Program-made: the position numbers and the translations under genes
The notes under the pieces: generated by a model
Told to the model about the DNA's origin: nothing
What the model saw: the letters and a program-made list of their open reading frames with translations, nothing else
Databases searched by the model: none
DNA from: an uncultured virus (IMG/VR IMGVR_UViG_3300032321_001470)
Lineage: Duplodnaviria; Heunggongvirae; Uroviricota; Caudoviricetes
Virus record (IMG/VR): IMGVR_UViG_3300032321_001470
Direction: 5' to 3' (one strand)
Length of the DNA stretch: 20,012 nucleotides
Shown: positions 3,459 through 20,012 of the stretch, piece after piece
Numbering within the stretch: position 1 is the first letter of the stretch
Layout: each line of letters opens with the position of its first letter

Positions 3459-3544
3459 GTTATTGTCCGGGCTGGCGGGATCGAACAGAAGTTATTGCAC
3501 GGGCTGGCGGGATAGAACCTAGGGCTGGGGTCTTGAGTTAGAAC
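3459..3544 (+). repeat. 28-bp direct repeat x2 plus a partial third copy, each ending in T(A/C)GAAC
   Basis: GTTATTGTCCGGGCTGGCGGGATCGAAC (3459-3486), GTTATTGCACGGGCTGGCGGGATAGAAC (3491-3518) and ...GGGCTGGGGTCTTGAGTTAGAAC (to 3544). Confidence 0.8.
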
Positions 3545-3580
3545 AACCGCACACCCAGATTTGCGCCACGCTGAGCAACG

Positions 3581-3616
3581 AAAACCCCCAACCTGGTGTC
3601 CCAGGAGGGGGTTTGT
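3581..3616. terminator. probable bidirectional intrinsic terminator between converging gene blocks
   Basis: AAAACCCCC-AACCTGG-TGTC-CCAGG-AGGGGGTTT stem-loop. A second hairpin TAGCCCC...GGGGCTA lies at about 3632-3651. Confidence 0.55.
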
Positions 3617-3654
3617 CGTTTCCAGGGCTCCTAGCCCCCTAATCGGGGCTATTA

Positions 3655-3828
3655 TTATTCAGAATCGGGAACGTAGCCTCGCTTCTCCAATCCTGCGAAA
3701 CACTCCTCGCACAAGAAGGCACCCGGCTCGCGCTTCGTTGCGGGGATGATGGTGAAGTACGGCTTGCCGTGATGGTAGTCCTCGCAGTCGTAGCAGAGGA
3801 ACCGCTCCGTCTTCTCTTCTGCGATCAC
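3655..3828 (-). CDS. small zinc-finger protein (57 aa, below ORF-track cutoff)
   Basis: MIAEEKTERFLCYDCEDYHH...FLCEECFAGLEKRGYVPDSE; the GTG start overlaps the upstream TGA. Confidence 0.65.
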   Translation of the reverse strand: MIAEEKTERFLCYDCEDYHHGKPYFTIIPATKREPGAFLCEECFAGLEKRGYVPDSE

Positions 3829-3902
3829 CGCTTCGAACCGATCAGGGCAAAGCCCATCAGGAAGAAAACGATTAACAATTGGAGCTGGATGGTTTCAATC
3901 AC
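3825..3902 (-). CDS. 25-aa putative membrane peptide
   Basis: MIETIQLQLLIVFFLMGFALIGSKR; GTGA overlaps at both ends; AGGAGG RBS at the end of the upstream gene. Confidence 0.55.
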   Translation of the reverse strand: MIETIQLQLLIVFFLMGFALIGSKR

Positions 3903-4120
3903 TTGAGTACCTCCTTAATTGCGTCAGAGATCAGGTGTCGGGCTTTCGCCACGGTCATCTCTGCGTCGATGTCGTAGTCCACAATCACTTCAGAACAGTC
4001 AAGGCACTCCAACGCAAGGTTGCGAATGTCGCTGATGTCAAAGAGTAACTGATCATTCTTGACGAGGTCGGGGCCGTATACCCCAACCTCGATCTCGTGT
4101 CCCTTGTGTTCACTTGCCAT
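3899..4120 (-). CDS. hypothetical protein (CxxC)
   Basis: MASEHKGHEIEV...LECLDCSEV; AGGAGG RBS. Confidence 0.7.
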   Translation of the reverse strand: MASEHKGHEIEVGVYGPDLVKNDQLLFDISDIRNLALECLDCSEVIVDYDIDAEMTVAKARHLISDAIKEVLK

Positions 4121-4130
4121 TGGGCCCCTC

Positions 4131-4391
4131 CTACTTGAACAGGACGACTCGGCTTGCCACGTCGCAGAACGCCACATGGTCGTAGTCGAGGATCTTATCC
4201 GCAATCTCATCGGCGGTCAACTTGGCTACCGCTTCGTAGTCCGCCTCCGTACCGCCACACTCCTCAGCGAGCCACTCCCGACCCGCCTCTGTCGCCTCGT
4301 CCTTGTCGTCGGTCATGAGATAGAAGTTATCCCCATCCGCAAGGATGATGACCGTCTGGTAGACCACAAACTCGTTTCCTTCGTATCCCAT
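4131..4391 (-). CDS. acidic hypothetical protein
   Basis: 86 aa; TAATG coupling and GGAGG RBS. Confidence 0.7.
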   Translation of the reverse strand: MGYEGNEFVVYQTVIILADGDNFYLMTDDKDEATEAGREWLAEECGGTEADYEAVAKLTADEIADKILDYDHVAFCDVASRVVLFK

Positions 4392-4693
4392 TATTCCTCC
4401 ACCAAGTCATACTGCTCAGCATCGATGTCGAGCACGCGCTCTAACTTATAAGTTTCAATATCACCCACAAACTCGTTGATGGTCTTCCCGCAGTCATAGC
4501 ACTCAATCGAGGTGACGTAGGAACCGCCATCCCCAAGTGAGTAATCATTGGCGATGCCGATCTGCACGCCACCCATCCCGCTTGGTGTGCCTGTGACCTC
4601 AAAAGACATCGACACGCTGCCGAGGAAGTAGACCCCTCGTCGCTTCTCCCCTTCTGGGGCATCGGACAGGGGGCACGTCTTATGAACTAACAT
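4391..4693 (-). CDS. hypothetical protein (HxxC...CxxC)
   Basis: Start MLVHKTC with AGGAGGAGG RBS; TAATG coupling. Confidence 0.7.
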   Translation of the reverse strand: MLVHKTCPLSDAPEGEKRRGVYFLGSVSMSFEVTGTPSGMGGVQIGIANDYSLGDGGSYVTSIECYDCGKTINEFVGDIETYKLERVLDIDAEQYDLVEE

Positions 4694-5572: not shown

Positions 5573-5594
5573 AGTGCTCCTTTCCTATGGGGGC

Positions 5595-5624: not shown

Positions 5625-5708
5625 GTTTGGGGTGGGGGTGGGGTGGCTTGACAAGACTTATTATTTGTGGCAGTCCCGAGCTCGCAAGCGAGGGCCGAAC
5701 CCTATTAT

Positions 5709-5738
5709 TTGACAGACGGTTATTGGCTGACTTATAAT
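5709..5738 (+). promoter_or_regulatory. sigma70-type promoter
   Basis: TTGACA-N18-TATAAT, preceded by a degenerate hairpin-CGAAC element (about 5667-5700) and followed by a TAGGC-AGTTA-GCCTA leader hairpin. Confidence 0.8.
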
Positions 5739-5777
5739 GCGGTTAGGCAGTTAGCCTATAGGTGTAAGGAGGAAGTT

Positions 5778-6092
5778 ATGGCTGTCGAAACGATTGAGCA
5801 GTTATTTGCGGAACAGAAGTCAGGCAAGTTAATCAACGAGCGCAGGGAGTTGAATCTTAGGCTCCGCGATGCGCACTACCTTCTAACAGAGATGGTTGAG
5901 CCGCTTCTCGGCGCGGTCATCACAGGCGGGGTAGTTATTGGAAACGGCGATGACGAGCCGTTTGTTCCAGTCTTGTTCGTTATTCAGAACGGCAAGAAGT
6001 ACAGCGTTATTATTCAGTCTGATGACGAGGGCAATGACGGCGGTCGCCTTATCTTTGATCGCGGCACGGCTCAGATGGTTCCAACTTTGTAA
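5778..6092 (+). CDS. hypothetical protein
   Basis: TAAGGAGG RBS before ATG 5778; contains IIQSDDEGNDGG. Confidence 0.75.
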   Translation: MAVETIEQLFAEQKSGKLINERRELNLRLRDAHYLLTEMVEPLLGAVITGGVVIGNGDDEPFVPVLFVIQNGKKYSVIIQSDDEGNDGGRLIFDRGTAQMVPTL

Positions 6093-6255
6093 TAAGGAGG
6101 AGATGTAGTTATTGTAATCTCCTTCAACCGCTAAAAAAATAATTAGTTCGCCCTCAACAAGCTCCGGCTTGTTGAGGTAGAACTTGACAGGCGGGTAAGT
6201 TCTGCCTTACAATCTGATGGTGCGGGGCTTCCCGCGAGGACACAAGGAGGACATA

Positions 6256-7065
6256 ATGCCAAACTGGTGCGTGAACCAAGTGGACATTGGCGGCGACGAG
6301 GCAGAGGTCGCAAAGTTGATTGAGTTCGTCAAGGGCGAAGAAGATGCCTTTGACTTCTCCAACATCGTGCCGACTCCCGACAGCCCACACTACGCAGTAA
6401 GCGAAGGTCAGAACGATTTCCTTTGCGGCTGTAAGCCAGAGTTCGTCATCACCAAAGAAATGGTGAAGGGAGCGGAAGGACACGAGTACGAGAAGGAACA
6501 CGGCTTTGAGCCGCAGGAAGGCTACTGGGCTGTGGACGGCGTTGCGCTCAGGAAAGTAAATCTTGATAACGGCACGATTGAGGATTCCGTTGCCCAGATG
6601 TTTGGCGGGTCAGAGGTCTGCCCAAAGCACGACCTCCCGAGGATTTCATCGCAGCCAGACTGGTGGTACAACTGGAATGTTGCCAACTGGGGAACCAAGT
6701 GGAACTGCGGAGAAGTGTGGCACGACCGCGCTGACGACGACAAGGTTGATGGAAGGACTTCATACAACTTTGAGACGGCGTGGTCGCCAGCCGAGCCTGT
6801 GGTCGCTGCGCTTGCCGCAAAGTTTCCAACGCTCTCTATTGTCCATCGCTATTGTGAAGGCGGTATGGGATTCGCGGGGCAGGTAATCTACAACAACGGC
6901 GAAGAGGTGCTGCGCGATGATTACAACGCGACAGAACTTCCCGATGATGCGTGGATTGCCGAGGAAGATGGCAGCCGCGGATACGAGCGCGACTACGAGA
7001 AGGTTCCAATGACGGCAATGGAATCTTTCTGCGACGAGCACTTCGGCGGTATTGTCGGAGGCTAA
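6256..7065 (+). CDS. DUF1281 / YubB ferredoxin-like domain protein
   Basis: MPNWCVNQV start, WYNWNVANWGTKWN, FETAWSP and YCEGGMGFAG motifs; AAGGAGG RBS. Confidence 0.85.
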   Translation: MPNWCVNQVDIGGDEAEVAKLIEFVKGEEDAFDFSNIVPTPDSPHYAVSEGQNDFLCGCKPEFVITKEMVKGAEGHEYEKEHGFEPQEGYWAVDGVALRKVNLDNGTIEDSVAQMFGGSEVCPKHDLPRISSQPDWWYNWNVANWGTKWNCGEVWHDRADDDKVDGRTSYNFETAWSPAEPVVAALAAKFPTLSIVHRYCEGGMGFAGQVIYNNGEEVLRDDYNATELPDDAWIAEEDGSRGYERDYEKVPMTAMESFCDEHFGGIVGG

Positions 7066-7109
7066 TGACTTCGGGGCGTAAGGAGTCCTCCCTGCGCCCC
7101 ATAAAGTAA

Positions 7110-7143
7110 TAAACCCCCTGATTACTCAGGGGGTTTATTATTA
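7110..7143 (+). terminator. intrinsic terminator
   Basis: TAAACCCCCTGA-TTAC-TCAGGGGGTTTA followed by TTATT. Confidence 0.75.
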
Positions 7144-7250
7144 TGTTCCACTCAAAGGGCTCCGGCCCTTTGAGGTAGAACTTGACGCGATCTTGTGCTT
7201 GTGGGAGAATCTTCTTACGGCAGTTGCCGTATGTAAAGAAGGAGGACGCA

Positions 7251-8213
7251 ATGGCACACGAAGTAGAAACGATGGCGTACAACAAGGAGCGAGGTATGCC
7301 GTGGCACGGACTTGGCGTAGCAACGAGCGGCTTGACCACAAGCGCAGAAATGATTGTTGCGGCTGGTCTTGACTGGCGCGTACAGCAGCAGCCAATCTTC
7401 ACCACGCTTGGCGAGAAGACAATCGCTATTGAGGGCAAGCGCGCAAATGTGCGCTCGACTGACGGCGCGGTTCTCGGCGTTGTCGGCGACCGCTACACGC
7501 CAATCCAGAACGATGAGATGATGTCGTTCGCTGACGCGCTACTCGACGAGGGCGCACGCTACGAAACCGCAGGTTCGCTCAAAGGCGGGCAAGTAATCTT
7601 CGCGGCGTTGGAGATTCCTGAAAAGATTTCCATCAAGGGCGACAACGGCGAAACCACAACTTACCTTGTGATTGCCAACGGGCACAACGGGCTGTTCCCG
7701 CTCAAAGCGATGATTACGCCTGTGCGCGTGGTCTGCCAGAACACGCTCAACGCGGCTCTTGGCTCTACCAAGATGTCGTTCACTCTCCGCCACACGGCGA
7801 AGATTGAGGAGAAAGTCGCAGAAGCGAAACGCGCCCTCGGGTTGGCTTCCGCCGCTGTTGATGAGTTCTCGCGCATCGGCTCGCAGATGGTCGTTCAGAA
7901 GATTGAGCGTTCGGAAGCGTTCCGCATCATCTCAAAGATCTTCCCGCTGTCGGAGTCGGAGAAGCGCGACAAGGAAGTAATGTCGGAGCGCGCAAAGGCA
8001 ACCTTCGCGATTCTGAATAACGCGCAGAATCTTGACGGGCTTCGCGATACGAAGTGGGGTGTCTACAACGCCATCGCGGAGTATCTCGACCACGGCGTTT
8101 CCTATCGTGGCGGCGTTCGCTCAACGGCTCTTGATGCGCGAGCGTCAAGCGTGATGTTGGATACGGGCTTCGCGGCGAAGACAAAGCGCGAGGCGATTCT
8201 CGCCCTCGCGTAA
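7251..8213 (+). CDS. DUF932 (phage/plasmid-like, TIGR03299-type) protein
   Basis: MAHEVETMAY...PWHGLG, YTPIQN, YETAGSLKGG, TPVRVVCQNTL, RHT and TKWGVYNAIAEYLDH; AAGGAGG RBS. Confidence 0.9.
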   Translation: MAHEVETMAYNKERGMPWHGLGVATSGLTTSAEMIVAAGLDWRVQQQPIFTTLGEKTIAIEGKRANVRSTDGAVLGVVGDRYTPIQNDEMMSFADALLDEGARYETAGSLKGGQVIFAALEIPEKISIKGDNGETTTYLVIANGHNGLFPLKAMITPVRVVCQNTLNAALGSTKMSFTLRHTAKIEEKVAEAKRALGLASAAVDEFSRIGSQMVVQKIERSEAFRIISKIFPLSESEKRDKEVMSERAKATFAILNNAQNLDGLRDTKWGVYNAIAEYLDHGVSYRGGVRSTALDARASSVMLDTGFAAKTKREAILALA

Positions 8214-8236
8214 TCTTCACCAGAAGATAAAGCAAG

Positions 8237-8268
8237 AATCCCGCCCTTCGGGGCGGGGTTTTTGTTTT
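8237..8268 (+). terminator. intrinsic terminator
   Basis: AATCCCGCCC-TTCG-GGGCGGGGTT followed by a T-run. Confidence 0.85.
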
Positions 8269-8371
8269 ACTCCAAGTAGCTCCGGCTACTTGGAATCGAA
8301 CATTTGACTTGCGCTAGGTTGTGCCTTACAATCCTAGTACGGCAGTTGCCGTGAGGACAAAGGAGGACGAA

Positions 8372-8677
8372 ATGGCAGCGAGTTTCGACAAGGTTGAGGA
8401 GTACCTAGAAAATGCGAAGGGTATCGCGTTTGATACCTGCCACAAGATCTATGTCTTGATGGACGACGAGCAGATGGAAATGATGAAGGGATACGGCTAC
8501 GACCCGCTGATTTCCGCAGATGATTCCACCGCAAATGAAATGCTCACGACCATTATGGATTGGTATGAGGATTCTTGCGGCTTGCGATTTGTTCAGGCGG
8601 TTTACACAAACAACGACGACCCAAATGAAGGATTCGTTTCCTTGATTGAGCAGGGCGCGGAGTGGGAGGCAGAATGA
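8372..8677 (+). CDS. acidic hypothetical protein
   Basis: AAGGAGG RBS; AFDTCHKIYVL and SCGLRFV motifs. Confidence 0.8.
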   Translation: MAASFDKVEEYLENAKGIAFDTCHKIYVLMDDEQMEMMKGYGYDPLISADDSTANEMLTTIMDWYEDSCGLRFVQAVYTNNDDPNEGFVSLIEQGAEWEAE

Positions 8678-8841
8678 GTAAGTGGATTGTCGTATTACAG
8701 AACACAGGCTATCGGGAGTTTGAGGTAGAAGCCGATAGCAAAGAGGAGGCAGAGAAGAAGGCGTGGGCTGCTTCCGAGGAACCCGCTCCGTGGGATACGA
8801 CCCCAGAAACAATCGTATGGAGTACGGAGGAGTTGGTATGA
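8674..8841 (+). CDS. 55-aa acidic protein (VEADSKEEA motif; below ORF-track cutoff)
   Basis: MSKWIVVLQNTGYREFEVEADSKEEAEKKAWAASEEPAPWDTTPETIVWSTEELV; ATGA overlaps at both ends; GGAGG RBS. Confidence 0.75.
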   Translation: MSKWIVVLQNTGYREFEVEADSKEEAEKKAWAASEEPAPWDTTPETIVWSTEELV

Positions 8842-9308
8842 GCGGGCAAATGGACAAATGCGTTCGCTGCTCCACGATGGTCTTCTACGCCGACGAGAAG
8901 GTCATCGGCACTTGGAATGGTATGCCGTACACGCGATTCGATACGCTCGACTTTGAGCAGTATGATGGGGGCGTGCCAGACGGCTATCTGGTTTACTGCT
9001 TGGACTGCGCTCCTTGCGAGTGTGAGTTTCACCCGCCGTTTATGTCGGACAAGGAAGCCGTAGCCGATGGTTGGTGCTTCCGCGCTGATTGTGAGTTTGC
9101 TCTCAATCGCGATGGCGACGCTAACTGGCATCGCCACTACAACGACATTCCGCGTGAGTCCGCGAGTGAATGTCTGTGCCGAGATGTTGATTATGCGCCG
9201 TGCGGGTTATGCGACCCAGACGAGGGCGTGGACACGGGCGACAACCCAGAAGGCTGCTCTGCTCCTGTCTGTATGGCGTGTGGTTATACAACAAACCAGA
9301 TTTACTAG
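8838..9308 (+). CDS. Cys-rich hypothetical protein
   Basis: Start MSGQMDKC with GGAGGAG RBS; several CxxC/CxC motifs. Confidence 0.7.
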   Translation: MSGQMDKCVRCSTMVFYADEKVIGTWNGMPYTRFDTLDFEQYDGGVPDGYLVYCLDCAPCECEFHPPFMSDKEAVADGWCFRADCEFALNRDGDANWHRHYNDIPRESASECLCRDVDYAPCGLCDPDEGVDTGDNPEGCSAPVCMACGYTTNQIY

Positions 9309-9435
9309 GCGCATTTATTAGTTCGCCTCCAATGAGCTCCGGCTCATTGGACTAGAACCCGCTTGACGGATTGCCAAGCGTGGTCTTACAATAAGCAGGT
9401 CGGGGCTTCCCGATAAGAGGACATAAGGAGGCTGT

Positions 9436-9984
9436 ATGCCACTAAGTTGGTTCGTGGGAAACATCAAGGACGCGGATGATGTCTGTTGGCTCACCGCAAC
9501 AAAGAGCAGCGTGATGGATGGACGCGTGCGCGGCGAGGAGTACCTCAGCCCAATCACGAACTCCTTCATCTGGGCAACGATGACGATTGGACTAAACGAA
9601 ATCACCGAAGCCAATGTGGATGAGTGGGAGCAGCGACTCGCGCTCGCATACGAAATCGGTTGGCTCTCAAAGATGACCGTATGGAACGGCAACGAGCCAG
9701 ATGGCGATAAGAACGCAGATTGCTTTGAGGCTCGCCCCCTGACGCGTGCCGACATCGTTCGGCACATCGGACTCTCAACAAACGCCTCTTACGAGTCGCC
9801 GACGGCTTGGCGCAAGCGCGTTGTTGAGCGTATGACTGAGGAAGGTTTGCGCGAGGCAAAGCACGCTGAGAAGCGCAACGCCGAACTTGACGCAATCTGG
9901 ATGAAGGAAGGCAACGAGTTGCGAGATGAGATTCGCAGCGGCAAGACAACCAAAGAAGAAGCAGCAAAGGTGGTGGTAGCGTGA
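9436..9984 (+). CDS. hypothetical protein
   Basis: TAAGGAGG RBS; 182 aa; first gene of its cassette. Confidence 0.8.
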   Translation: MPLSWFVGNIKDADDVCWLTATKSSVMDGRVRGEEYLSPITNSFIWATMTIGLNEITEANVDEWEQRLALAYEIGWLSKMTVWNGNEPDGDKNADCFEARPLTRADIVRHIGLSTNASYESPTAWRKRVVERMTEEGLREAKHAEKRNAELDAIWMKEGNELRDEIRSGKTTKEEAAKVVVA

Positions 9985-10457: not shown

Positions 10458-10479
10458 TCATTGGGTTATCTAAACAACT

Positions 10480-11676: not shown

Positions 11677-11682
11677 ATAAAT

Positions 11683-12939: not shown

Positions 12940-13052
12940 GTTCGGCTCATCTTTGCTCCGGCAAAGATGAGTAGAACCCGCTTGACGGCTGATGATGTTT
13001 GTGCGTACAATGGTGCTACCCCGATTGGGGTGGCTAGTGAAGGAGGCAAACG

Positions 13053-13310: not shown

Positions 13311-13384
13311 TTGTTGAGTACGCCATATTCTACGGGCTGCTCCTGCTGCTAACGCTGTACGGACTCGCGCTCGTAAGCAAGTAG
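13307..13384 (+). CDS. 25-aa putative membrane peptide
   Basis: MIVEYAIFYGLLLLLTLYGLALVSK; ATGA overlap with the upstream stop. Confidence 0.5.
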   Translation: MIVEYAIFYGLLLLLTLYGLALVSK

Positions 13385-13502
13385 TCGTTATTGTGGCGGC
13401 GCAAGGAGCCGAGGCTCCTTGCGGTGGAACTTGACAGGCGCAGAACTTATCGCGTATAATCGTGTAGTCGGGAACTCCCGATAGTTGCGAGTAGGAGGAC
13501 TT

Positions 13503-13766
13503 ATGGACAGCAAGATTCGGGCGTGGACTTACGAGGGGTCGTTCCATTGCGTAGCGTGCGCCACGGCGCGATTCGGCGACGCACTTGACGATGGGCAGAC
13601 AACTGACCGCGAGGGCAACACCCTCGGTCCTGTCTTTGAGTGGGACGAGGTGAATCTCTGCGGCGACACTTGCGGCACCTGCCTCAACTGGGCAGTAGAG
13701 CCAGAGGCGCACGAGCCAGCCAGTTGTTTATTCGGCGCAGATTGTCGCCAGTTTGAGTTCGCATAG
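13503..13766 (+). CDS. small zinc-binding protein
   Basis: TAGGAGG RBS; HCVAC and CGDTCGTC. Confidence 0.75.
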   Translation: MDSKIRAWTYEGSFHCVACATARFGDALDDGQTTDREGNTLGPVFEWDEVNLCGDTCGTCLNWAVEPEAHEPASCLFGADCRQFEFA

Positions 13767-13813
13767 CGGACTAATGTCTACGAGGTGGCGGCAGCCTCCA
13801 CCACCTCTTCCCC

Positions 13814-13855
13814 AAGCGGGCTAGTTGATCGCAGCCAACTAGCCCGCTTTTTGTT
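13814..13855 (+). terminator. intrinsic terminator
   Basis: AAGCGGGCTAGTTG...CAACTAGCCCGCTT followed by a T-run. Confidence 0.85.
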
Positions 13856-13963
13856 ATGCCCCAAGTAGCAGCGGCTACTTGGGCTAGAACCCGCTTGACA
13901 GGCTGGGAAAGTTCACATTACAATGGGCGTAGCCCAGTTGGGTTGAGAAGACAGGAGGCTAGA

Positions 13964-14305
13964 ATGTTCAGAGCATTTGCAATCTCACTCACGAACAGCG
14001 ACTTCTACCAGTTCTACTGCTCGCAGGGCGAAGTGTGCAGCAAGTGCCCAGTCTGGTATCTCCGACCAGAAGTTCGGAGCCGCGTTGAGCCGCACGCCAT
14101 CAAGATTGAACTCATCTATGGAGATACGATGGACGGCGTTGCGATCCCAGACGAGTCGCACGAAACCGAACTTGATGGAACTTACGACAGGTTCCAGTAC
14201 GCGATCGTTCACTGGCGCAATGATGGATTCATTGACTTCGTTGTCTTTGATTCAACTGAAGCCGCGCAGCGCGAGATGCAAGACATTGTGAGCGTCTTCG
14301 CCTAA
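13964..14305 (+). CDS. hypothetical protein
   Basis: CAGGAGG RBS before ATG 13964. Confidence 0.75.
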   Translation: MFRAFAISLTNSDFYQFYCSQGEVCSKCPVWYLRPEVRSRVEPHAIKIELIYGDTMDGVAIPDESHETELDGTYDRFQYAIVHWRNDGFIDFVVFDSTEAAQREMQDIVSVFA

Positions 14306-14435
14306 ACCCGCGATAAATTAGTTCAGCCCCTAATGGCTCCGGCCATTAGGGATAGAACGCGCTTGACAGGCTGGCAGTTTATCCCTTAGTATTCAGAGGT
14401 CGGGGCTTCCCGATGAAGAAAGAGGAGGCTAGAAA

Positions 14436-14843
14436 ATGGGTAAGGCAATCAAATTCGGAGTCGGCAAGTTTGAGGACGCAACGCCAAACGGCGCACTCTT
14501 CAACTGGGTTGAGGTGGTGGACTTCAACGATGACGGCAGCACGCTCAAAGAGATTTACCGCGTGGGCGAGTTTGACATCACCGAGGTCGCGGTTTCTGGC
14601 AAGTACGGCGCGACGAGTGTGGTGCTCTGGTGCGATGAGGAGGGGCTTTTCAATGAGCCAGTCGTTCGCAATCAGGCGGCAACATCGCTGCGAAATGAGA
14701 TTCTCGGCGGGAACTTTGACGGCATCTATGGCAACTGCGTATTGACCGCAGAGGACAAGGACGGGCAGACGCTCGCCCTCAATGATGAGCAGGTGGAAGA
14801 AATCCGCACGCTGCTAGAACTGGGCGGCTACCCTATCGCGTAA
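14436..14843 (+). CDS. DUF3846-like protein
   Basis: LWCDEEGLF...NQAATSL...IYGNCVLT pattern; GAGGAGG RBS. Confidence 0.7.
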   Translation: MGKAIKFGVGKFEDATPNGALFNWVEVVDFNDDGSTLKEIYRVGEFDITEVAVSGKYGATSVVLWCDEEGLFNEPVVRNQAATSLRNEILGGNFDGIYGNCVLTAEDKDGQTLALNDEQVEEIRTLLELGGYPIA

Positions 14844-14866
14844 AGTTTCGCAGCTGCGAGAACATC

Positions 14867-14891
14867 AACGAGGGGTGCGCCCCTCGTTTTT
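14867..14891 (+). terminator. intrinsic terminator
   Basis: AACGAGGGG-TGCG-CCCCTCGTT followed by a T-run. Confidence 0.8.
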
Positions 14892-15004
14892 GTTTGCCTC
14901 CAATCTGCCTCGGCAGATTGGACTAGAACCACTTGACGGCAGGCAGAAGATGACTCTATAATGGCAGCAGCCCACTTGGGCTGGCTAGGAATAGGAGGCT
15001 ACAA

Positions 15005-15214
15005 ATGGCAACGATGGAAGACTTGGACTACGCCCCCTGCGAGCAGTGCGGCGATGGTATGAGCGAAACACTCGTCCAGAACGGCAAGCCACTTTGCGAG
15101 AGGTGCCACAACAAAATCAACTGCGGGTGCGAAACCTGCACTTGTGAGGAGTGCGGCGAGGTTCACGAGGCTGACCTAGCAAACGAGAGCGACTATCGGG
15201 AGGTAGGGAAATAA
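15005..15214 (+). CDS. small Cys-rich protein
   Basis: TAGGAGG RBS; CEQC, CERC and CGCETCTCEEC. Confidence 0.75.
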   Translation: MATMEDLDYAPCEQCGDGMSETLVQNGKPLCERCHNKINCGCETCTCEECGEVHEADLANESDYREVGK

Positions 15215-15435
15215 TGAACGAGAACACTTGGATTCAGATTCACACAAATGGCGCAAGCACGACCTTTGCCCGTTGGTATGAAGGGCAAGACGCGGAAGGA
15301 GATACGGTCTTTGTCTTTGAGAAGATGGCGACCGACTTTGTGAATAGCATCGTTGAGGTGTTCGGCGTTGAGGAGTTCGGCAGCGCGGAAGGCGCAACTA
15401 ATCGCCTACAAGAAGCCGTCGCGCTTGCGCGATAA
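15214..15435 (+). CDS. acidic hypothetical protein
   Basis: TAATG coupling; GGAGGT RBS. Confidence 0.7.
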   Translation: MNENTWIQIHTNGASTTFARWYEGQDAEGDTVFVFEKMATDFVNSIVEVFGVEEFGSAEGATNRLQEAVALAR

Positions 15436-15478
15436 CTAGATGCTCACAACGGGGAACTAGCCCCTCGGAGTGAAACAA

Positions 15479-15504
15479 TAAGCCCCGCTTCGGCGGGGTT
15501 TATT
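15479..15504 (+). terminator. intrinsic terminator
   Basis: AAGCCCCGC-TTCG-GCGGGGTTT followed by ATT. Confidence 0.8.
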
Positions 15505-15614
15505 GTTATGGCTCAAGGAGCCGAGGCTCCTTGAGATAGAACGCTTGACAAGCAGCCAGAAGTTGGCGTACTATTGTCTTGCGGCACTTGCCGTGGCGAA
15601 CGAAGGAGGCAACA

Positions 15615-15887
15615 ATGTTCGGTATCGCAGCGACCTATGTCACGAAGTTCATCAGCACCCCAGGTCACGGCTACCTCGTGTCTACGAAGGCAATGCTCCG
15701 CGAACTCGGCATCGCGGATAAGATTAGCAACTGCTCGTATGAGCGCAACGGCAGCGTCTACCTTGAGGAAGATGTTGATGCGCCGCTATTCCTCGCCGCA
15801 ATGGAGAAGGCGGGCTTCACGGTTTCGTACAACTCGGTGAGCGTGAACGACGACTACACCGCAAAGATGGAGTATTACTCGGCGTAA
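15615..15887 (+). CDS. conserved phage protein (PGHGYL...YLEED motif)
   Basis: GAAGGAGG RBS; STPGHGYL, ISNCSY and VYLEEDVD motifs seen in uncharacterised phage proteins (from memory). Confidence 0.75.
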   Translation: MFGIAATYVTKFISTPGHGYLVSTKAMLRELGIADKISNCSYERNGSVYLEEDVDAPLFLAAMEKAGFTVSYNSVSVNDDYTAKMEYYSA

Positions 15888-16020
15888 ACTCCTCGCCGCT
15901 CAGTATTAGTTCGGCTCTAGGTAGCCGCGGCTACCTAGACTAGAACGCTTGACAGCGCGCAGAATCTCACTCTATAATGGCAGCAGCCCACTTGGGCGAG
16001 GCTAATAAGGAGGCTAGACA

Positions 16021-16338
16021 ATGAGCGGACAATACAACGGCTGGAGCAACTACGAAACTTGGTTGGCGGCGTTGTGGATTGGCGAGGGCTACGCGGGGGG
16101 CAGTGATTACGTTTCGGAGATTGCCGCCGAGATTCTTACGGACAACGAGGGCGACAGCGACGAAGCCGCCGACACTCTCGCGGACACCTTGCGCAACGAC
16201 ATTGACGAAACTTGGACAACGAGGGCGGCAGGTCTTGAGGCAGACCTATTGCGTGCCGCGGTTGAGGCAATCAACTGGCACGAAATCGCACGCACCTATG
16301 TAGATGACGCGAAAGCCGAGGCAAAGGCAGAAGCATAA
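16021..16338 (+). CDS. acidic conserved phage protein (YNGWSNYETW motif)
   Basis: TAAGGAGG RBS; N-terminal YNGWSNYETW and C-terminal INWHEIA; very D/E-rich. Confidence 0.8.
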   Translation: MSGQYNGWSNYETWLAALWIGEGYAGGSDYVSEIAAEILTDNEGDSDEAADTLADTLRNDIDETWTTRAAGLEADLLRAAVEAINWHEIARTYVDDAKAEAKAEA

Positions 16339-16356
16339 ACACACCAGAACAGAAGC

Positions 16357-16477
16357 AAGCCCCCCCAAGAACCGCCGAGGCTCTTGGGGGGCTTATTATT
16401 TGGGCAAGCCCTCCTCGCCGGGCGAGGAGGGATCAAACAGAAAGCCCCCCGCTGCCGCGTGGCAACGAGGGGCTTCT
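16357..16477. terminator. converging terminators of the two arrays
   Basis: AAGCCCCCCCAAGA...TCTTGGGGGGCTT-ATTATTT (+) and AAGCCCCC...GGGGCTT at 16442-16476 (-). Confidence 0.7.
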
Positions 16478-16480
16478 GGT

Positions 16481-16711
16481 TTAGTCGCCTCCTGGAAGCG
16501 GGTCGGTATCCGTTCCGATAAACCCACGCTCGGGGCTAATCCTGCGCTTGGTGCGCTCCCAAGCGTCATCTTCTTCCGCAATAGAATCGGCGTATTCCAC
16601 CGCCCATTTCTCGTAATAGGAATCGCGTCCTTCTACGCACGCAGCGCAGATAGTTGATAGTGGCTCAAACTCGTTGAAGAAATCAACGCCACAATCTTGG
16701 CACGCTACCAT
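16481..16711 (-). CDS. small zinc-finger protein
   Basis: TAAGGAGG RBS; CQDC and CAAC. Confidence 0.75.
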   Translation of the reverse strand: MVACQDCGVDFFNEFEPLSTICAACVEGRDSYYEKWAVEYADSIAEEDDAWERTKRRISPERGFIGTDTDPLPGGD

Positions 16712-16940
16712 TTTATTGCCTCCTTATCGCAACACGGGAAGCCCCGCACCGACATAGTGCCTGAATCGCTGGGTTCATTATAGTTCGTCTGATGCGAGCG
16801 GAGCGAGCGGCAGAACCCTAGGCCAGTTATCTTAGTTAGTTATGCAGTTAGTTATTAGTCGGGTTGGCGAGCTCGAACGAAGTGAGAGAGTCGGGATAGA
16901 CCACCCCACCCACCGCCGAAGCGGTGAGTGGGGTGATGCG

Positions 16941-17285
16941 CTACGCCTGACCGTAGCAGGTCTTCTCCATGTCTAGTGTGTGCGTGAGCCTCTTGGACTC
17001 TTCGCCGCACTCCTCGCACTCCCAATAGCCGAATAGCGAGAGGTCGTCATCACTCGCGTCAGCATAAACGCTGGCGAACTCTGCAATCTCCTCGGCGTAG
17101 TGGTGTGGCTTCTCCATCACATCAACCGCATGGTCGGCGGTATCAGCGCGGCGAGCGTATGATGACGCCCACAACTCTAGCGCGTGCTCATCAGCACCAC
17201 CAGACGCCTCTACGAATCGCCATGTGTGATAGTCCACGACGCTATCGTTGCGCTCCTCTATTGCTTGATTCTTCATGACTCCCAT
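16941..17285 (-). CDS. acidic hypothetical protein (CxxC near C-terminus)
   Basis: TAAGGAGG RBS before MGVMKNQ. Confidence 0.75.
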   Translation of the reverse strand: MGVMKNQAIEERNDSVVDYHTWRFVEASGGADEHALELWASSYARRADTADHAVDVMEKPHHYAEEIAEFASVYADASDDDLSLFGYWECEECGEESKRLTHTLDMEKTCYGQA

Positions 17286-17523
17286 TACTAGCCTCCTTAT
17301 TACTACACGGCATTTGCCGCACCTGAATAATGCCACCGTCGCGTGATTCGTTTAGGTTCCTCTGATAGGCGCGGAGCGCCGAGTCGAACCAGTTATTAGT
17401 CAGTTAGTTATTAGGTTAGTTAGGTCACAGACTGGCGGTCTCGAACGAAGTGAGAGACTCGGGATTGAACCACCACCGCCCAGACCCGATGGTCTGGACG
17501 ATGGTGGAGTGAAGCGGTTGCGA

Positions 17524-17829
17524 CTACTCTTCGTCGCAATCGTCGTCGTATGAACCTAGTTCAATGTCATCGGCGCCGCAATCCTCGCAATCGTACATGC
17601 CGAATTTGCCGATGTCATACAGGAAACTATCATTGCCAAGAGCGATTGCGTAATCCGCAAGACGCTCAAGGTGCTCCTCTGGTCGCAGCGTCATGCTCAC
17701 CACGTCCATGACGTCCAACTTGGCGAACCCTGAACGATTGCGATAGGTGACGAACGACTCAACGATGTCTACGAGCGAGCGGGGATCGCCACCGCTGCCC
17801 ACTGGAGTGAACCGTAAACTATGACCCAT
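17524..17829 (-). CDS. hypothetical protein, paralog of 19089-19385
   Basis: TAGGAGG RBS; shared YDIGKFGxYxCExCxxDDIExGSY tail. Confidence 0.8.
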   Translation of the reverse strand: MGHSLRFTPVGSGGDPRSLVDIVESFVTYRNRSGFAKLDVMDVVSMTLRPEEHLERLADYAIALGNDSFLYDIGKFGMYDCEDCGADDIELGSYDDDCDEE

Positions 17830-18051
17830 TGCTTTACCCTCCTATTCATAACACGGGAAGCCCCGCACCTGAATAATGCCACGAGGGGGTGATTCATTTA
17901 GGTGGTCTCGTTAGGCGCGGAGCGCCGAGTAGAACGGTTAGTTAGTTAGTTATCTTATGGGTTGTCGGTCTCGAACGAAGTGAGAGAGCCGAGATTGAAC
18001 CACCACCGCCAACCGCCGAAGCGGTTGACGATGGTGATTTGCTGTGGCGGT

Positions 18052-18336
18052 CTACTTGAAGGTCGCGAGTTCAGTATTGTACTGCTCCTCGGTGATGACC
18101 TTGGTGCCGCACCCTGGGCACTCTGGGACGTCAGCGTAAACTTCTCTTACGTCCATTTCCTGAACGACGTTCCACGCCTTCATCGCGCGAACGAAATCAG
18201 TGTTGACGACGATTCCCAAATACTTCGGAAGCCCCGCTTCTGCGCAATACTCGCAAACGATTTCGTCGCCCAAGAAGAACGCAACAACGTCCGCTGCGCC
18301 CTCGCCCTTTGCTACAATCTTGATGTACTCCAACAT
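18052..18336 (-). CDS. small zinc-ribbon protein
   Basis: TAAGGAGG RBS; CEYC and CPGC. Confidence 0.75.
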   Translation of the reverse strand: MLEYIKIVAKGEGAADVVAFFLGDEIVCEYCAEAGLPKYLGIVVNTDFVRAMKAWNVVQEMDVREVYADVPECPGCGTKVITEEQYNTELATFK

Positions 18337-18545
18337 TGTTTACCTCCTTATGAAACGCACGGCAACTGCCGCACCAAGAGAATGCCACGGACGAGGTTGT
18401 TGTTTAGGTTGCCTCGTTAGCCGCGGAGCGGCGAGTCGAACCAGTTATTAGTTAGTTATATTACGGGGGTTCGGTATCGAACGAAGTGAGAGAGCCTCGG
18501 TAGACCACCCCGCCCACCGCCGAAGCGGTGAACGGGGTGATGCGA

Positions 18546-18869
18546 CTACTCTTGATCCGTCCAGAAGGCAGCGTCGTCATTGCCCTCCTCGTTCATTCGC
18601 GAGTAGAATGCGCTGCGCTCCTCCTCGATTGCGCGCTCCTCTACGCGAAGAAGAGCCGATCCGTCAAGGCACGCTGCCTCGCACGCTGCGTAGAACTCGT
18701 TGCTGATCAATGCCTGACGCTCGCAGCCGTTGCAATAGCCGTACCACTCTTCGCCGCACTGCTCGTGGTGCATACAATCGTATGGTTCACAGCAGCGCGC
18801 ACGCTCAATGCGGATCACCGTCAACTCGCGTGCCATCTCCTGAACGCTCATTGTTTCCGTGTCTGACAT
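18546..18869 (-). CDS. Cys-rich acidic hypothetical protein
   Basis: TAGGAGG RBS before MSDTETM; CCEPYDCMHHEQC...CNGC. Confidence 0.75.
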   Translation of the reverse strand: MSDTETMSVQEMARELTVIRIERARCCEPYDCMHHEQCGEEWYGYCNGCERQALISNEFYAACEAACLDGSALLRVEERAIEEERSAFYSRMNEEGNDDAAFWTDQE

Positions 18870-19088
18870 CTTGTGCCTCCTATAAACTATACGGCAGGTG
18901 CCGCAGAGAGACAATGACATAGACGCCATTATTGTTTAGGTTCTCCTGATAGACGCGGAGCGTCGGCTCGAACGGTTAGTTAGTTAGTTATCTTATGGAG
19001 TTTCGAGCTCGAACGAAGTGAGAGACTTGGGATGGAACCACCACCGCCCACCGCCGAAGCGGTGAGCGATGGTGGGGTGAAGCGAGTG

Positions 19089-19385
19089 CTACAACTCTTC
19101 TACGCACTCATCGTGGTATGAGCCGTACTCAATGTCATCGTCCTGACACTTCTCGCAATGGTAAGAGCCGAATTTGCCGATGTCATAAATCCAACTATCT
19201 ACGCCAGAATCAATCGCGAACTCCGCGAGCGTTGCCAGACGATCCTCGCGGAACGGATCGAATAGGAAATCCACCATATCGGAAACGTGAACTTTCCGAC
19301 ACTCAAAGTACGCTCTGATAACAGGACGGAGTACGCTGACGTCCTCCCAGACCCCCATACGCGTGAACGCTAACTTATGAGCCAT
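19089..19385 (-). CDS. hypothetical protein, paralog of 17524-17829
   Basis: TAGGAGG RBS; shared C-terminal motif. Confidence 0.8.
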   Translation of the reverse strand: MAHKLAFTRMGVWEDVSVLRPVIRAYFECRKVHVSDMVDFLFDPFREDRLATLAEFAIDSGVDSWIYDIGKFGSYHCEKCQDDDIEYGSYHDECVEEL

Positions 19386-19625
19386 TGCTTTACCCTCCTA
19401 TAAACTACACGGCAACTGCCGCACCTGAATAATGTCATGGACAAGTGATTCGTTTATGTGGGCTCGTTAGGCGCGGAGCGCCGAGTCGAACCAGTTATTG
19501 GTTAGTTACTTAGTTAGTTATCTTATGGGCTGTCGAGCTCGAACAACGTGAGAGAGAGTACCGACCGACCACCCCACCAACCGCGCGTCCGCGGTTGATG
19601 GGGTGATGTCTGGATTCGGCGATGA

Positions 19626-19883
19626 CTACTTGGCGCTCATCACCGTGAAGGTGCCTGCCGCCTTCTCCTTGCGGTACGCCTGCATAAGAGCCTTCTCGGA
19701 CTCTCGGCGAGCCGTTTCCGCGTCGCTCCACACATTGACCAATGAGGCGTAAACCTTATCGGTCAGGTAGTCTGGCTCTGGCTGCCCGTTGAGTTGCGCG
19801 ATGTTCTCCCACGATTGAACATTGCGATACGCTTCGCGCTCCGCGATGAATGATAGAGCGAACAACTTATAGAGTGCGTCCAT
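19626..19883 (-). CDS. hypothetical protein
   Basis: TAGGAGG RBS before MDALYKL. Confidence 0.75.
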   Translation of the reverse strand: MDALYKLFALSFIAEREAYRNVQSWENIAQLNGQPEPDYLTDKVYASLVNVWSDAETARRESEKALMQAYRKEKAAGTFTVMSAK

Positions 19884-20012
19884 ACTGCCTCCTATTTGAT
19901 TCTGTTTCGCGTTGCGATTCACAACGCGGCGAGCGTCCTCGCACCAGAAGAATGCCACGACCGAGTGATTCGTTTAGGTTCACCTGTTAGCCGCGGAGCG
20001 GCGATTCGAACC

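Follow-up and report, generated by a model that had tools for sequence, protein, structure and literature searches.

PeSL cassettes, described for the hyperplastic regions of T4-type myoviruses, combine strong sigma-70-like promoters with stem-loops; these sequences border small non-essential genes and mediate the shuffling of modules. In the excerpts of PMC2839356 and PMC4122927 used here, the composite motif stands at every junction, and the indels and reorderings of close relatives break within it. Motifs confined to one strand are known from the nicks of virion DNA, where they keep to that strand even if gene blocks converge: the part of PMC3517423 that we draw on gives 14 sites for phage tf, all on the top strand. 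Among hairpins, an excerpt of PMC13037366 describes GCGGAGC, the 'mini-hairpin DNA' motif, as the apex bound by the N4 mini-vRNAP, and reports related motifs at the G4 and ssiA priming sites. The N4 polymerase reportedly needs particular bases at four positions, namely C at +1 and -9, G at -8 and a purine at -1 (excerpted in PMC4496689).

The window analysed here, the whole stretch of 20,012 nt, comes from a phage family that is unrelated to the T4-type (about 83 kb, TerL at most 29% identical to that of catalogued phages), and it includes a hyperplastic accessory region whose features are collected in Table 1. As in PeSL regions, each small accessory gene is framed by a sigma-70-type promoter and a stem-loop, with a composite motif at every junction. 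The PeSL stem-loop is a terminator, whereas here it is a separate perfect DNA palindrome. Also unlike PeSL, the base of the phage's element is GTTC/GAAC, its bubble is fixed and its box keeps one polarity, and the element recurs in a second array whose genes run the other way.

The rightward units share one layout. A TTGAC(A/G)-17/18-TAnnAT promoter is followed by a short hairpin in the 5'-UTR, then by AAGGAGG and by one or two small genes, and about half of the units also have a canonical terminator. The leftward array continues past the contig end, and its modules lack the consistent sigma-70 consensus that the rightward modules have. An earlier note on this DNA had placed a flip of transcription at about 16.4 kb, and comparison of the contig with G001, a complete 83-kb relative, bears this out: substitutions at codon position 3 pile up in the minus-strand frames of 4 of 4 leftward genes, and are concentrated in the plus-strand frames of 4 of the 4 rightward genes tested. 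At the left boundary, the units at 3459-3486 and 3491-3518 each read GTTATTG..GGGCTGGCGGGA-T(C/A)GAAC, and a third, degenerate unit ends at 3544; relatives retain these units, in three copies in G001 and two in G005.

Table 1. Arrays and junction elements in the window (positions count from its first nucleotide).
Feature	Position	Strand	Remark
Left boundary of accessory region	3459..3544	+	three tandem hairpin-less units
Rightward array	5667..16400	+	16 transcription units
R element	6146..6183	+	GTTCGCC, 24-nt palindrome, G, TAGAAC
R element	7144..7181	+	TAGAAC
R element	8264..8301	+	TCGAAC
R element	9321..9358	+	TAGAAC
R element	10502..10539	+	TAGAAC
R element	11279..11316	+	TAGAAC
R element	11889..11926	+	TAGAAC
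R element	12583..12620	+	TAGAAC; next promoter 57 nt downstream, 12678
R element	12940..12977	+	TAGAAC
R element	13393..13430	+	variant box TGGAAC, outside the pattern of the earlier note
R element	13853..13890	+	TAGAAC
R element	14321..14358	+	TAGAAC
R element	14892..14929	+	TAGAAC
R element	15505..15542	+	TAGAAC; left end of one-cassette gain/loss relative to G001
R element	15909..15946	+	TAGAAC; right end of one-cassette gain/loss relative to G001
Leftward array	16400..20012	-	seven modules of ~530 nt, one small minus-strand gene each
Degenerate L1	16794..16816	+	GCGAGC-GGA-GCGAGC (direct, not inverted, repeat), then CAGAAC
L2 unit	16851..16878	+	GTTAT..N17..TCGAAC, then GAAGTGAGAGA
L1	17368..17389	+	GGCGC-GGA-GCGCC, GAG, TCGAAC
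L2 unit	17419..17446	+	
L1	17914..17935	+	TAGAAC
L2 unit	17949..17976	+	
L1	18420..18441	+	GCCGC-GGA-GCGGC; TCGAAC
L2 unit	18455..18482	+	
L1	18952..18973	+	GACGC-GGA-GCGTC; TCGAAC
L2 unit	18987..19014	+	
L1	19470..19491	+	TCGAAC
L2 unit	19517..19544	+	
L1	19990..20011	+	TCGAAC; at contig end

Junctions between single-gene expression cassettes carry a lineage-specific element whose conserved 3' edge is the hexamer T(N)GAAC; this element occurs in three forms, R, L1 and L2. The R form, 38-40 nt long, lies between the terminator of one cassette and the sigma-70-type promoter of the next. From 5' to 3' it opens with a T-rich tract, which is often the T-tract of the terminator itself, and GTTC. 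Next come a 3x3 bubble, hardly ever complementary, and a perfect 10-bp stem around a 4-nt centre; one base then separates the stem from T(A/G/C)GAAC, usually followed after 0-5 nt by the -35 box of the next cassette. GTTC pairs with GAAC at the base, and the bubble makes the otherwise palindromic element asymmetric, so that the hexamer is visible on one strand only. The TTA(G/T)TT-type sequence that had been seen upstream of the motif is real as well: rightward cassettes have TTATTAGTT or TTTTTGTT, and the leftward array has (GTTA)n.

The stem varies in sequence from copy to copy while keeping its pairing. The 105 R elements of seven genomes comprise 82 distinct palindromes, in which 818 of 820 stem cells are Watson-Crick (the others being one G.T and one other mismatch), compared with a mean of 502 of 820 when the 3' arms were dealt randomly. 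Each stem position shows 2-4 pair types, the outer stem is partly conserved (C-Y-C-A-A ... T-T-G-R-G), and the 4-nt centres flip between CGCC and GGCG. Among 94 distinct copies, the GTT(C)/(G)AAC pairs at the base form in 92, 89, 87 and 67, and the three bubble positions in just 17, 11 and 8. The distance from the box to TTGAC in the 105 elements is 0 nt in 14, 2 in 41, 3 in 25, 4 in 8, 5 in one and 12-14 in 8, TTGAC being absent in the remaining 8; this variability means that the box is tied to the hairpin and not phased with the promoter. The conserved palindrome is not the terminator: a T-run follows it on neither strand, and canonical terminators lie upstream of it. The junction element is young; relatives with TerL about 70% identical have sigma-70-like promoters without the element upstream (by eye, at 20 listed sites).

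In the window T(A/C)GAAC matches 33 times, 32 of them on + and one on - (14011), while dinucleotide shuffles of the window gave a mean of 19.6 and a maximum of 30 for both strands together. All 32 plus-strand copies are inside the cassette arrays, at contig positions 16819-33344: three form the tandem triple at 3459-3544 of the window, 14 belong to the rightward array and directly follow a perfect palindrome on its 3' side, six belong to L1, 3 nt past a GGA-loop hairpin, six sit within the 28-nt hairpin-less unit (L2), and three are unrelated, in or near coding sequence (3833, 14815, 18691). The fifteenth rightward junction has TGGAAC (13425). These counts agree with the earlier note, which had described a plus-strand motif independent of gene direction, usually placed 3' of hairpins, with three copies near 3481-3544 and one in nearly every rightward cassette; its figure of 2-3 copies per leftward module comes down to two. 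Of the 16 rightward sigma-70-like promoters, 15 have an element upstream, and the exception, the first promoter at 5709, faces a divergent operon.

The same polarity is found in G001, where T(A/C)GAAC is distributed 39:1 (+:-) inside the arrays, which make up 18 of 83 kb and confine the sites to cassette junctions, and where the extended motif GRG(N)T(A/C)GAAC occurs 25:0 inside and 0:0 outside. The proposal that orientation follows the chromosome is not supported, however: comparable counts on both strands had been named as the result that would speak against it, and outside the arrays this is what we find, with 11 on + and 8 on - in 64.8 kb of G001, and 0 on + and 2 on - in the first 16.8 kb of the contig. 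Nor is there support for a position at a genome terminus, since the arrays lie in the interior of G001; the terminal repeats that had been flagged are overlaps from the assembly of circular maps, and the two ends of the G004 contig fall within G001, near 36.5 and 38.0 kb. Because the elements are co-oriented only inside the accessory region, they look like cassette-junction sites rather than a genome-wide signal. The copies are tandem-array repeats of about three families (R; L1; L2 together with the tandem triple), so they are not 32 independent events, and with so few families the chance of one shared orientation is only about 1 in 4. The weight of the observation comes instead from the same arrangement being kept in seven related genomes, in all of which motif orientation is independent of gene direction, and in which 105 of 325 plus-strand T.GAAC sites have a hairpin on their 5' side, against 1 of 118 minus-strand sites.

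L1 and L2 are variants of the R element in the leftward array. L1 is a hairpin with a 5-bp stem and a GGA loop. It stands upstream of 6 of the 7 leftward genes in the window, with a degenerate copy at the seventh, and the hairpin lies between its box and the gene. Perfect hairpins of this kind number 55 on + and none on - in the seven genomes; the closing pair is always C:G, and the 15 distinct arm pairs covary. There are 6-11 copies in a genome, a single one for each small gene, and they lie mid-map. L2 has no hairpin, and in G004 and G005 its box is followed by an inverted copy, TAGAAC-N3-GTTCTA, with a covarying second base.

Cassette order differs among the present contig (G000) together with G001, G004 and G005, and the matching segments end within about 45 nt of a box, while no inverted homology of at least 80 nt was found within or between seven arrays. 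The single G001 junction that corresponds to the one-cassette gain or loss at 15505-15946 equals the left junction of the contig up to the outer stem and the right junction from the inner stem onward. The crossover is thus inside the hairpin, and in the resulting hybrid both arms are complementary again. Among the options raised earlier, direct-repeat recombination sites fit best, given the scrambled order, the breakpoints at elements and the lack of any inversion seen. Our preferred reading, tentative and by analogy, is that the elements may be PeSL-like, co-oriented junction repeats that organise and shuffle cassettes. PeSL-type homologous recombination has no need of a perfect hairpin, a fixed bubble or a strand-specific GGA loop, which leaves the most striking features unexplained. 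It also counts against the analogy that the palindrome here is not the terminator, as the PeSL stem-loop is. Where neighbours differ, the variable core of the stem is shared in 11 of 80 pairs when the hairpin preceding the gene is compared and in 6 of 80 for the one following it (background 4.7%), so the hairpin travels reliably with neither flanking gene and the crossover point is undefined. No cassette transfer between the rightward and leftward arrays was seen, and their shared polarity is therefore not needed for the observed shuffling.

The strand-locked GGA loops could instead mean that L1, and perhaps R, are single-stranded-DNA hairpins that fold on + and are read by a polymerase, a possibility we regard as unlikely. 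As N4-style promoters they would fire leftward, giving sense RNA for leftward genes and antisense RNA for rightward cassettes; in another version they would be priming signals of the G4 or ssiA kind. The 55:0 strand count, the constant C:G closure and the covarying arms are in line with this, as are the one L1 per leftward gene and the inconsistent sigma-70 consensus there. N4 template-strand hairpins read ...AAAA-GAAGC-GGA-GCTTC, and L1 resembles them in its 5-bp stem, loop, closure and placement on +, the template strand of leftward genes. The L1 apex in G000-type genomes, GC-GGA-GC, matches the GCGGAGC of N4 hairpin promoters, and the consensus C-G-A-T-A-GGCGC-GGA has the base that the N4 polymerase reportedly needs at each of +1 (C), -1 (purine), -8 (G) and -9 (C). 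The searches for a reader speak against it. A Pfam RNA_pol profile search of G001, G004 and G005 gave no match (nor did the control genomes), a protein search with N4 mini-vRNAP none in four family genomes; T7-type motif B is absent from all open frames of at least 250 aa, and no primase or DNA polymerase was recognised among 129 G001 reading frames scanned outside the arrays. A 1590-aa virion-type protein had no match among solved structures or phage records, its language-model neighbours being tail proteins at a score of only 0.86. G014-type relatives have the stem CC-GGA-GG and so lose the -8G of N4; the flipping centres mean that R hairpins are not strand-specific; in G004 and G005 modules the stretch from L1 to the gene can be read as containing a weak sigma-70-like promoter, CTGACT-17-TATTCT; and a priming signal would be expected genome-wide rather than at cassette junctions only. 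N4 early promoters lie at the left end of the map. The many mid-map L1 copies also differ from the three early promoters given for N4 in the excerpts of PMC4496689 and PMC13037366.

Protein binding, cutting or site-specific recombination could also account for parts of the pattern. KorB of IncP plasmids is a regulator comparable to the one required if the elements are operators, where a phage dimer (ParB-like or HTH) binds palindrome and box and switches off all cassettes jointly. The palindromes are directly upstream of nearly all strong rightward promoters, the outer stem is partly conserved, TAGAAC-N3-GTTCTA resembles a dimer site, and the phage encodes HTH proteins and two ParB-like proteins (one gene at 210-728 of the window). 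However, a sequence-specific dimer needs no complementarity at variable positions, yet the stems keep it almost throughout, the spacing to the -35 box shows no helical phasing, the predicted first promoter of the rightward array works without an element, and in leftward modules the box lies beyond the hairpin, away from the gene; we find operators distinctly improbable. Integron attC sites have short conserved inverted cores with GTT/AAC triplets, an unpaired spacer, a structure conserved over sequence and a common orientation. By analogy, a strand-selective recombinase or nickase might excise and insert cassettes at the folded elements. These likewise carry GTT and AAC in their base, along with an unpaired spacer that is fixed and a stem conserved in structure but not in sequence, and there is one copy per cassette junction, with strict co-orientation whatever the gene direction, inversion-free scrambling and one crossover inside the hairpin. 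Here, though, the polarity is mirrored (5'-GTTC...GAAC-3' against 5'-...AAC...GTT...-3'), the element is shorter than the at least 57 nt of attC, the stems are perfect and without extrahelical bases, each cassette has its own promoter, and none of the proteins recognised in G001 is a tyrosine recombinase, a serine recombinase or an HUH enzyme. A fixed crossover point would moreover require a consistent hairpin-gene linkage, which the stem-core matches do not show, and this origin seems very unlikely to us. Least credible is that the boxes are programmed nicks of virion DNA beside a hairpin, on +, as in T5, tf/LUZ24-type and phiKMV-type phages. Both are short, asymmetric, one-strand motifs independent of transcription direction, the extended form being strand-exclusive in G001 as the tf sites are, and genes for an HNH endonuclease and for ParB-like nucleases occur in the family. 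But the boxes are linked to hairpins and confined to junctions, with no genome-wide spread, and in G004 and G005 the box is also inverted 3 nt away. The T5, tf and phiKMV motifs, as far as PMC3517423 is quoted here, are genome-wide, have no adjoining hairpin and follow a consensus that the boxes do not match.

If the elements are co-oriented, PeSL-like direct repeats, recombination at them would gain, lose and reorder cassettes. Repeats that all point one way would delete, duplicate or transpose the DNA between them and could not invert it, and arrays grown by such recombination would inherit one polarity, whatever the direction of the cargo gene. The stem would be kept as a DNA hairpin or cruciform, and is probably also a recognition or insulating structure for a putative reader.

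The motif T[AC]GAAC occurs 32 times on the + strand of the window and once on the - strand; the shuffled window contains, on both strands together, a mean of 19.6 copies and a maximum of 30. Three of the + copies form a tandem triple (3459-3544), 14 lie in the rightward array, six belong to each of the two leftward forms of the element (the hairpin-bearing L1 and the hairpin-less L2), and three are unrelated (3833, 14815 and 18691), while a 15th rightward junction carries TGGAAC instead (13425). The earlier note had put two to three motifs in each leftward module, and the count supports two. The coding strand changes at about 16.4 kb: substitutions between this contig (G000) and its complete relative G001 pile up at codon position 3, and this excess falls in plus-strand frames for four of four rightward genes and in minus-strand frames for four of four leftward genes. 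That the motif keeps to the same strand despite the switch in gene direction, as was noticed from the window, is real and robust, since the arrangement is kept in seven genomes, the other six arrays having + and - counts of 39:2, 49:9, 45:13, 24:5, 22:6 and 17:3. Because the copies of this box, the T(N)GAAC hexamer at the 3' edge of each element, are tandem-array members of about three element families, the bare ratio of 32:1 overstates the statistical weight, and the weight of the observation rests on its persistence in seven genomes. Among these, T.GAAC has a hairpin before it at 105 of the 325 sites on the + strand, compared with 1 of the 118 on the - strand.

The window makes up the rightmost 20 kb of a viral contig of 33,350 nt. 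Besides a tail fibre gene, two tRNA genes and the gene for the large terminase subunit (TerL), this contig has two ParB-like genes, a thioredoxin and genes for sugar modification. Nothing among catalogued phages matches it closely, and the TerL is at most 29% identical to that of any of them; 115 related stretches found with TerL make up a large uncultured family with genomes of ~80-91 kb. The seven array-carrying genomes compared are G000, G001, G004, G005, G014, G015 and G016, of which the last three, distant relatives, were retrieved by a structural DNA pattern. G001 (82,937 nt, rated 100% complete) has the same gene order as G000 at 80-90% identity. Both tRNA genes are kept in G001 and G004, and the tRNA-Ile also in the scanned part of G005; in a comparison of the window with Rfam at E up to 1, nothing was found except this tRNA-Ile (3194-3266). 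The rightward cargo includes a set of genes typical of conjugative-plasmid leading regions and anti-defence islands. The small leftward proteins (16481-19883, minus strand) have no Pfam family and a pairwise identity of only 6-29%, and an alignment shows a C-x2-C motif common to most of them.

Features of the contig and of the two arrays, in window positions unless contig position is stated
Feature	Position	Remarks
ParB-like gene	210-728	
tRNA-Ile(TAT)	3194-3269	directly left of array boundary
tRNA-Arg(TCT)	contig position 9558-9633	farther left than tRNA-Ile(TAT)
Rightward cassette cargo	6256-16338	DUF1281_C (Api92-like), DUF932, RadC-like JAB domain, DUF3846, DUF7249
(GTTA)n/(TTAG)n tract	16832-16870	between L1 and L2
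(GTTA)n/(TTAG)n tract	17392-17430	between L1 and L2
(GTTA)n/(TTAG)n tract	17936-17960	between L1 and L2
(GTTA)n/(TTAG)n tract	18444-18470	between L1 and L2
(GTTA)n/(TTAG)n tract	18976-19000	between L1 and L2
(GTTA)n/(TTAG)n tract	19494-19530	between L1 and L2

All 32 + copies fall within contig positions 16819-33344, and the first 16.8 kb of the contig has none on the + strand and two on the - strand. Likewise, T[AC]GAAC in G001 is distributed 39:1 within the 18-kb array region and 11:8 in the other 64.8 kb, and for the longer form GRG(N)T[AC]GAAC the counts are 25:0 within the arrays and 0:0 elsewhere. With strands so nearly balanced outside the arrays, the idea of a chromosome-polar signal is not supported in the form in which the earlier note proposed it. 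Outside the G001 arrays the motif is also scarce, at 11 and 8 copies against ~29.5 per strand expected from base composition, and in each of the ten family genomes listed TAGAAC is less frequent than its reversed control word; simple avoidance of TAG may be the reason. The arrays lie mid-map in G001 (35.4-53.3 kb), and a genome terminus at this place was rejected: the two ends of the G004 contig overlap by 22 nt and map inside G001, at ~36.5 and 38.0 kb, so that the terminal repeats flagged in relatives are overlaps of circular assemblies. In the more distant relatives G006-G008 (TerL ~70% identical) TAGAAC counts are unbiased or scattered, and sigma-70-like promoters are present with the element absent from the 20 listed sites inspected by eye. 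The element thus appears, from the genomes compared, to be a recent invention of one sub-lineage. Several of the sigma-70-like promoters of G006-G008 are preceded instead by C-rich repeats (CCCCACACCCCAC...).

The 15 rightward junctions share one order: a terminator, which about half of them have in canonical form, TTTATTAGTT or TTTTTGTT as a T-rich tract, GTTC with three further bases, a 24-nt palindrome (10-bp stem, 4-nt centre), one base and T(A/C/G)GAAC, followed after 0-5 nt by TTGAC(A/G), a 17-18 nt spacer, TAnnAT, a small 5'-UTR hairpin, AAGGAGG and ATG. The rightward array has 16 promoter-like sites matching 9-12 of 12 consensus positions (shuffle mean 8.7 sites for the whole region), and the first of its promoters (5709), opposite a divergent operon, is without the element, which argues that this rightward form, R, belongs between cassettes and is no part of the promoter. 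The distance from box to TTGAC is 0 nt in 14 cases, 2 in 41, 3 in 25, 4 in 8, 5 in one and 12-14 in eight, and another eight have no TTGAC; the box is tied to the hairpin, not to the promoter.

The seven genomes contain 105 R elements with 82 distinct palindromes, in which 818 of 820 stem cells are Watson-Crick pairs, one is G.T and one is another mismatch, against a mean of 502 paired cells when the 3' arms are dealt at random; elements were selected at 8 or more of 10 pairs, and the observed pairing is far above this threshold. Every stem position has two to four pair types. G.U is tolerated in RNA stems, and the near absence of G.T from the R stems therefore favours pairing in DNA, not RNA. 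Where orthologous hairpins differ between G000 and G001, they do so by double changes that compensate each other; between G004 and G005 the orthologous hairpins have identical stems with the centre flipped (GGCG vs CGCC). The commonest centre in G000 and G001, TCCG, is always on the + strand (11 distinct copies; no CGGA). Outside the palindrome the flank GTT(C)/(G)AAC is paired in 92, 89, 87 and 67 of 94 distinct copies, whereas the three positions between this flank and the palindrome are paired in just 17, 11 and 8. Either strand thus has 5'-GTTC ... GAAC-3' at the base of the fold. It is this fixed bubble that makes the element asymmetric, with T.GAAC on one strand only. The conserved palindrome is not predicted to be an intrinsic terminator, as neither strand has a T-run after it; canonical terminators, where present, lie upstream.

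A leftward module of ~530 nt, read on the + strand, opens with the beginning of a minus-strand gene, whose ribosome-binding site and 5'-UTR hairpin appear as reverse complements, and continues through GTTTAGGTTC, L1, a (GTTA)n tract and L2 to a long G+C-rich hairpin, located where the next minus-strand gene has its 3' end. L1 consists of a 5-bp stem, a GGA loop, 3 nt and T(C/A)GAAC, and L2 of ~17 nt, TCGAAC and GAAGTGAGAGA. L1 has the layout (T-rich/GTTC, hairpin, box) and the orientation of R, but its gene lies on its left and points leftward. Perfect GGA-loop hairpins with 5-bp stems number 55 on the + strand and none on the - strand of the seven genomes, always with a closing C:G pair and with 15 distinct, covarying arm pairs. 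Because the loop never flips, unlike the centres of the R palindromes, the constraint on L1, at least, is strand-specific. Behind the L2 box of G004 and G005 stands an inverted copy of the box itself (TAGAAC-N3-GTTCTA or TCGAAC-N3-GTTCGA), which explains most of the minus-strand copies in these two genomes. The (GTTA)n/(TTAG)n tracts contain stop codons in three frames on both strands, and their copy number differs among modules and genomes, reaching 6 units in G005.

The cassettes are thoroughly scrambled in order among G000/G001, G004 and G005, and the ends of matching cassette segments fall within ~45 nt of a box, while inverted matches of at least 80 nt are absent within and between the seven arrays. 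One event can be followed directly. G000 has one cassette more than G001, and the single G001 junction is identical to the left G000 junction across the terminator, T-tract and outer stem, and to the right one from the inner stem across the box and promoter. Because this hybrid switches between outer and inner stem, the crossover was inside the hairpin, with complementarity restored or retained later; the arms of the hybrid are complementary again. Where neighbours differ, the hairpin keeps reliably with neither of the genes beside it: its core matches in 11 of 80 cases before the gene and in 6 of 80 behind the gene, with 4.7% as the background. This comparison, which has little power, agrees better with exchange at any place in the conserved junction than with a single fixed point of crossover. 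Between direct repeats of the same polarity DNA can be deleted, duplicated or transposed but not inverted, and arrays built and reshuffled through co-oriented repeats retain one polarity whatever the direction of the cargo. The single polarity of the junction repeats matches the total lack of inversions. Among the options first offered for the motif, a direct-repeat recombination site is consequently the best supported, given the scrambled order, the zero inversions and the crossover within a hairpin.

The explanation that we prefer, and put forward tentatively, is that these are composite cassette-junction elements, closest to the promoter-early stem-loop (PeSL) cassettes of T4-type phages. 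As two reports describe it, a PeSL is a strong sigma-70-like promoter with a stem-loop that flanks small genes and mediates modular shuffling and mini-circle formation (PMC2839356; PMC4122927). The rightward array likewise has a sigma-70-like promoter for each cassette, and PeSLs too flank small non-essential genes in a hyperplastic region with reordering and indels between motifs; for the shuffling the likeness is based on the scrambled order of G000, G004 and G005, the crossover in the element and the lack of inversions. By contrast, the PeSL stem-loop is an effective terminator, whereas the conserved palindrome, having no T-run, is predicted not to be one, and the leftward modules lack a consistent sigma-70 consensus and with it the PeSL type of promoter, although a weak sigma-70-like promoter is readable in those of G004 and G005. 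The PeSL-type explanation also leaves the perfect hairpin, the fixed bubble and the constant + strand GGA loop of L1 unexplained, which implies some structure-specific reader of the elements.

One alternative is that the hairpins are single-strand signals of the kind that phage N4 uses as promoters, or priming sites. L1 has the form of an N4-type hairpin (5-7 bp stem, 3-nt G(G/A)A loop, C:G closing pair, template strand), the + strand being the template strand of the leftward genes. According to one study, GCGGAGC is the 'mini-hairpin DNA' motif and the apex to which the N4 virion polymerase binds, and motifs akin to it are found at the G4 and ssiA priming sites (PMC13037366). N4's own hairpins, on the template strand, read AAAA-GAAGC-GGA-GCTTC, and the promoter determinants, as reported in another paper, are -11 A/G, -10 G, -8 G and +1 C (PMC4496689). 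For every leftward gene the G000-type L1 consensus C-GATA-GGCGC-GGA, read on the template strand, fits these determinants. The lack of a consistent sigma-70 consensus in the leftward modules points the same way. However, no polymerase able to read such promoters was found, in particular no T7-like virion RNA polymerase, in searches with little sensitivity for very distant ones; G014-type relatives have lost the -8 G, and the weak sigma-70-like promoter readable in the G004 and G005 modules also speaks against this alternative. We consider such signals unlikely. Only slightly less doubtful is a joint reading in which every element is a folded-DNA signal that some enzyme, so far unrecognised in this family of phages, reads on one strand, the GGA mini-hairpins being N4-style promoters or priming sites without an N4-like polymerase gene, and the rightward palindrome-plus-box elements their relatives, at which an integron-like cassette system of a lytic-type phage would nick or recombine DNA in a strand-selective way.

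Other readers are less probable still. Operators of a ParB-/KorB-like or HTH regulator would account for elements that adjoin promoters, but are a poor fit to the complementary variation of the stems and to the variable spacing, and we regard them as quite unlikely. The architecture is strikingly parallel to that of integron attC sites, which share the co-orientation whatever the gene direction (here 105 hairpins before a box on the + strand and 1 on the - strand). The attC core sites, 5'-RYYYAAC ... GTTRRRY-3' at the base of the fold, have the opposite polarity to the 5'-GTTC ... GAAC-3' found here, and neither an integron integrase nor any recombinase family was found among the scanned frames of G000 and G001 with Pfam and PHROGs, many of these frames being without a family, so that attC-like structure-specific recombination sites seem improbable. 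Programmed nicks at the boxes, with which the strand exclusivity would agree as described for tf, T5 and phiKMV (PMC3517423), are more improbable again: the sites here are only at junctions, and they match none of the nick consensuses quoted in that paper. Phage nick motifs lie on one strand and are spread over the genome; T[AC]GAAC is one-stranded inside the arrays, and outside them the G001 counts are 11 and 8.

Several further identities were rejected. The reverse complement of L2 and of the tandem triple resembles the T-loop, T-stem and acceptor of a tRNA 3' end, as in an att remnant, but gives no partial tRNA match. T-loop position 57 is usually a purine, and TAGAAC, read as GTTCTA, lacks it. 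As for CRISPR repeats, the elements do run GTT...GAAC over 28-40 nt, but the stems differ from copy to copy and the 'spacers' are whole genes. Chi sites do not fit either, conservation being absent from the GCTGGCGG-like core of L2; the E. coli-type Chi octamer, GCTGGTGG, occurs once in the window (12634-12641, +), just after an R element. Readings of the boxes as ECF-sigma or -10/-35 sequences fail because the partner sequences at the expected spacing are, by eye, inconsistent.

Two side sequences deserve mention. The 17-mer TCGAACGAAGTGAGAGA found, in the viral collection, one true relative and several unrelated contigs; in three unrelated high-G+C viral or proviral contigs it stands directly after a terminator-like hairpin (...GCGTCGCTCT-ATTC-TCGAACGAAGTGAGAGAAT), and it looks like a separate conserved element. 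The cassette at 12678-12935 contains no convincing gene, its longest frame being 42 aa, although it is equipped with a terminator (12896-12935) and with the promoter TTGACA-18-GATACT, upstream of which is a TG; in the 188 nt between promoter and terminator there are 11 GGA triplets, where 6.7 would be expected.

Phages innovate in arrays of small genes of the early or anti-defence type that evolve fast, and the swapping of such genes between phages is known in outline for T4-type phages only. What is new here is a sharply defined junction element with a hairpin at the DNA level, whose polarity stays fixed through complete turnover of the stem sequence, and this phage family also supplies a natural crossover inside one such hairpin. 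If some nickase, recombinase or hairpin-dependent polymerase reads it strand-specifically, the element would be a phage-borne cassette system of a new kind, or else an independent second example of transcription from hairpin promoters; if there is no such reader, it would still be a clean example of how co-oriented junction repeats allow genes to be shuffled while making inversions impossible.
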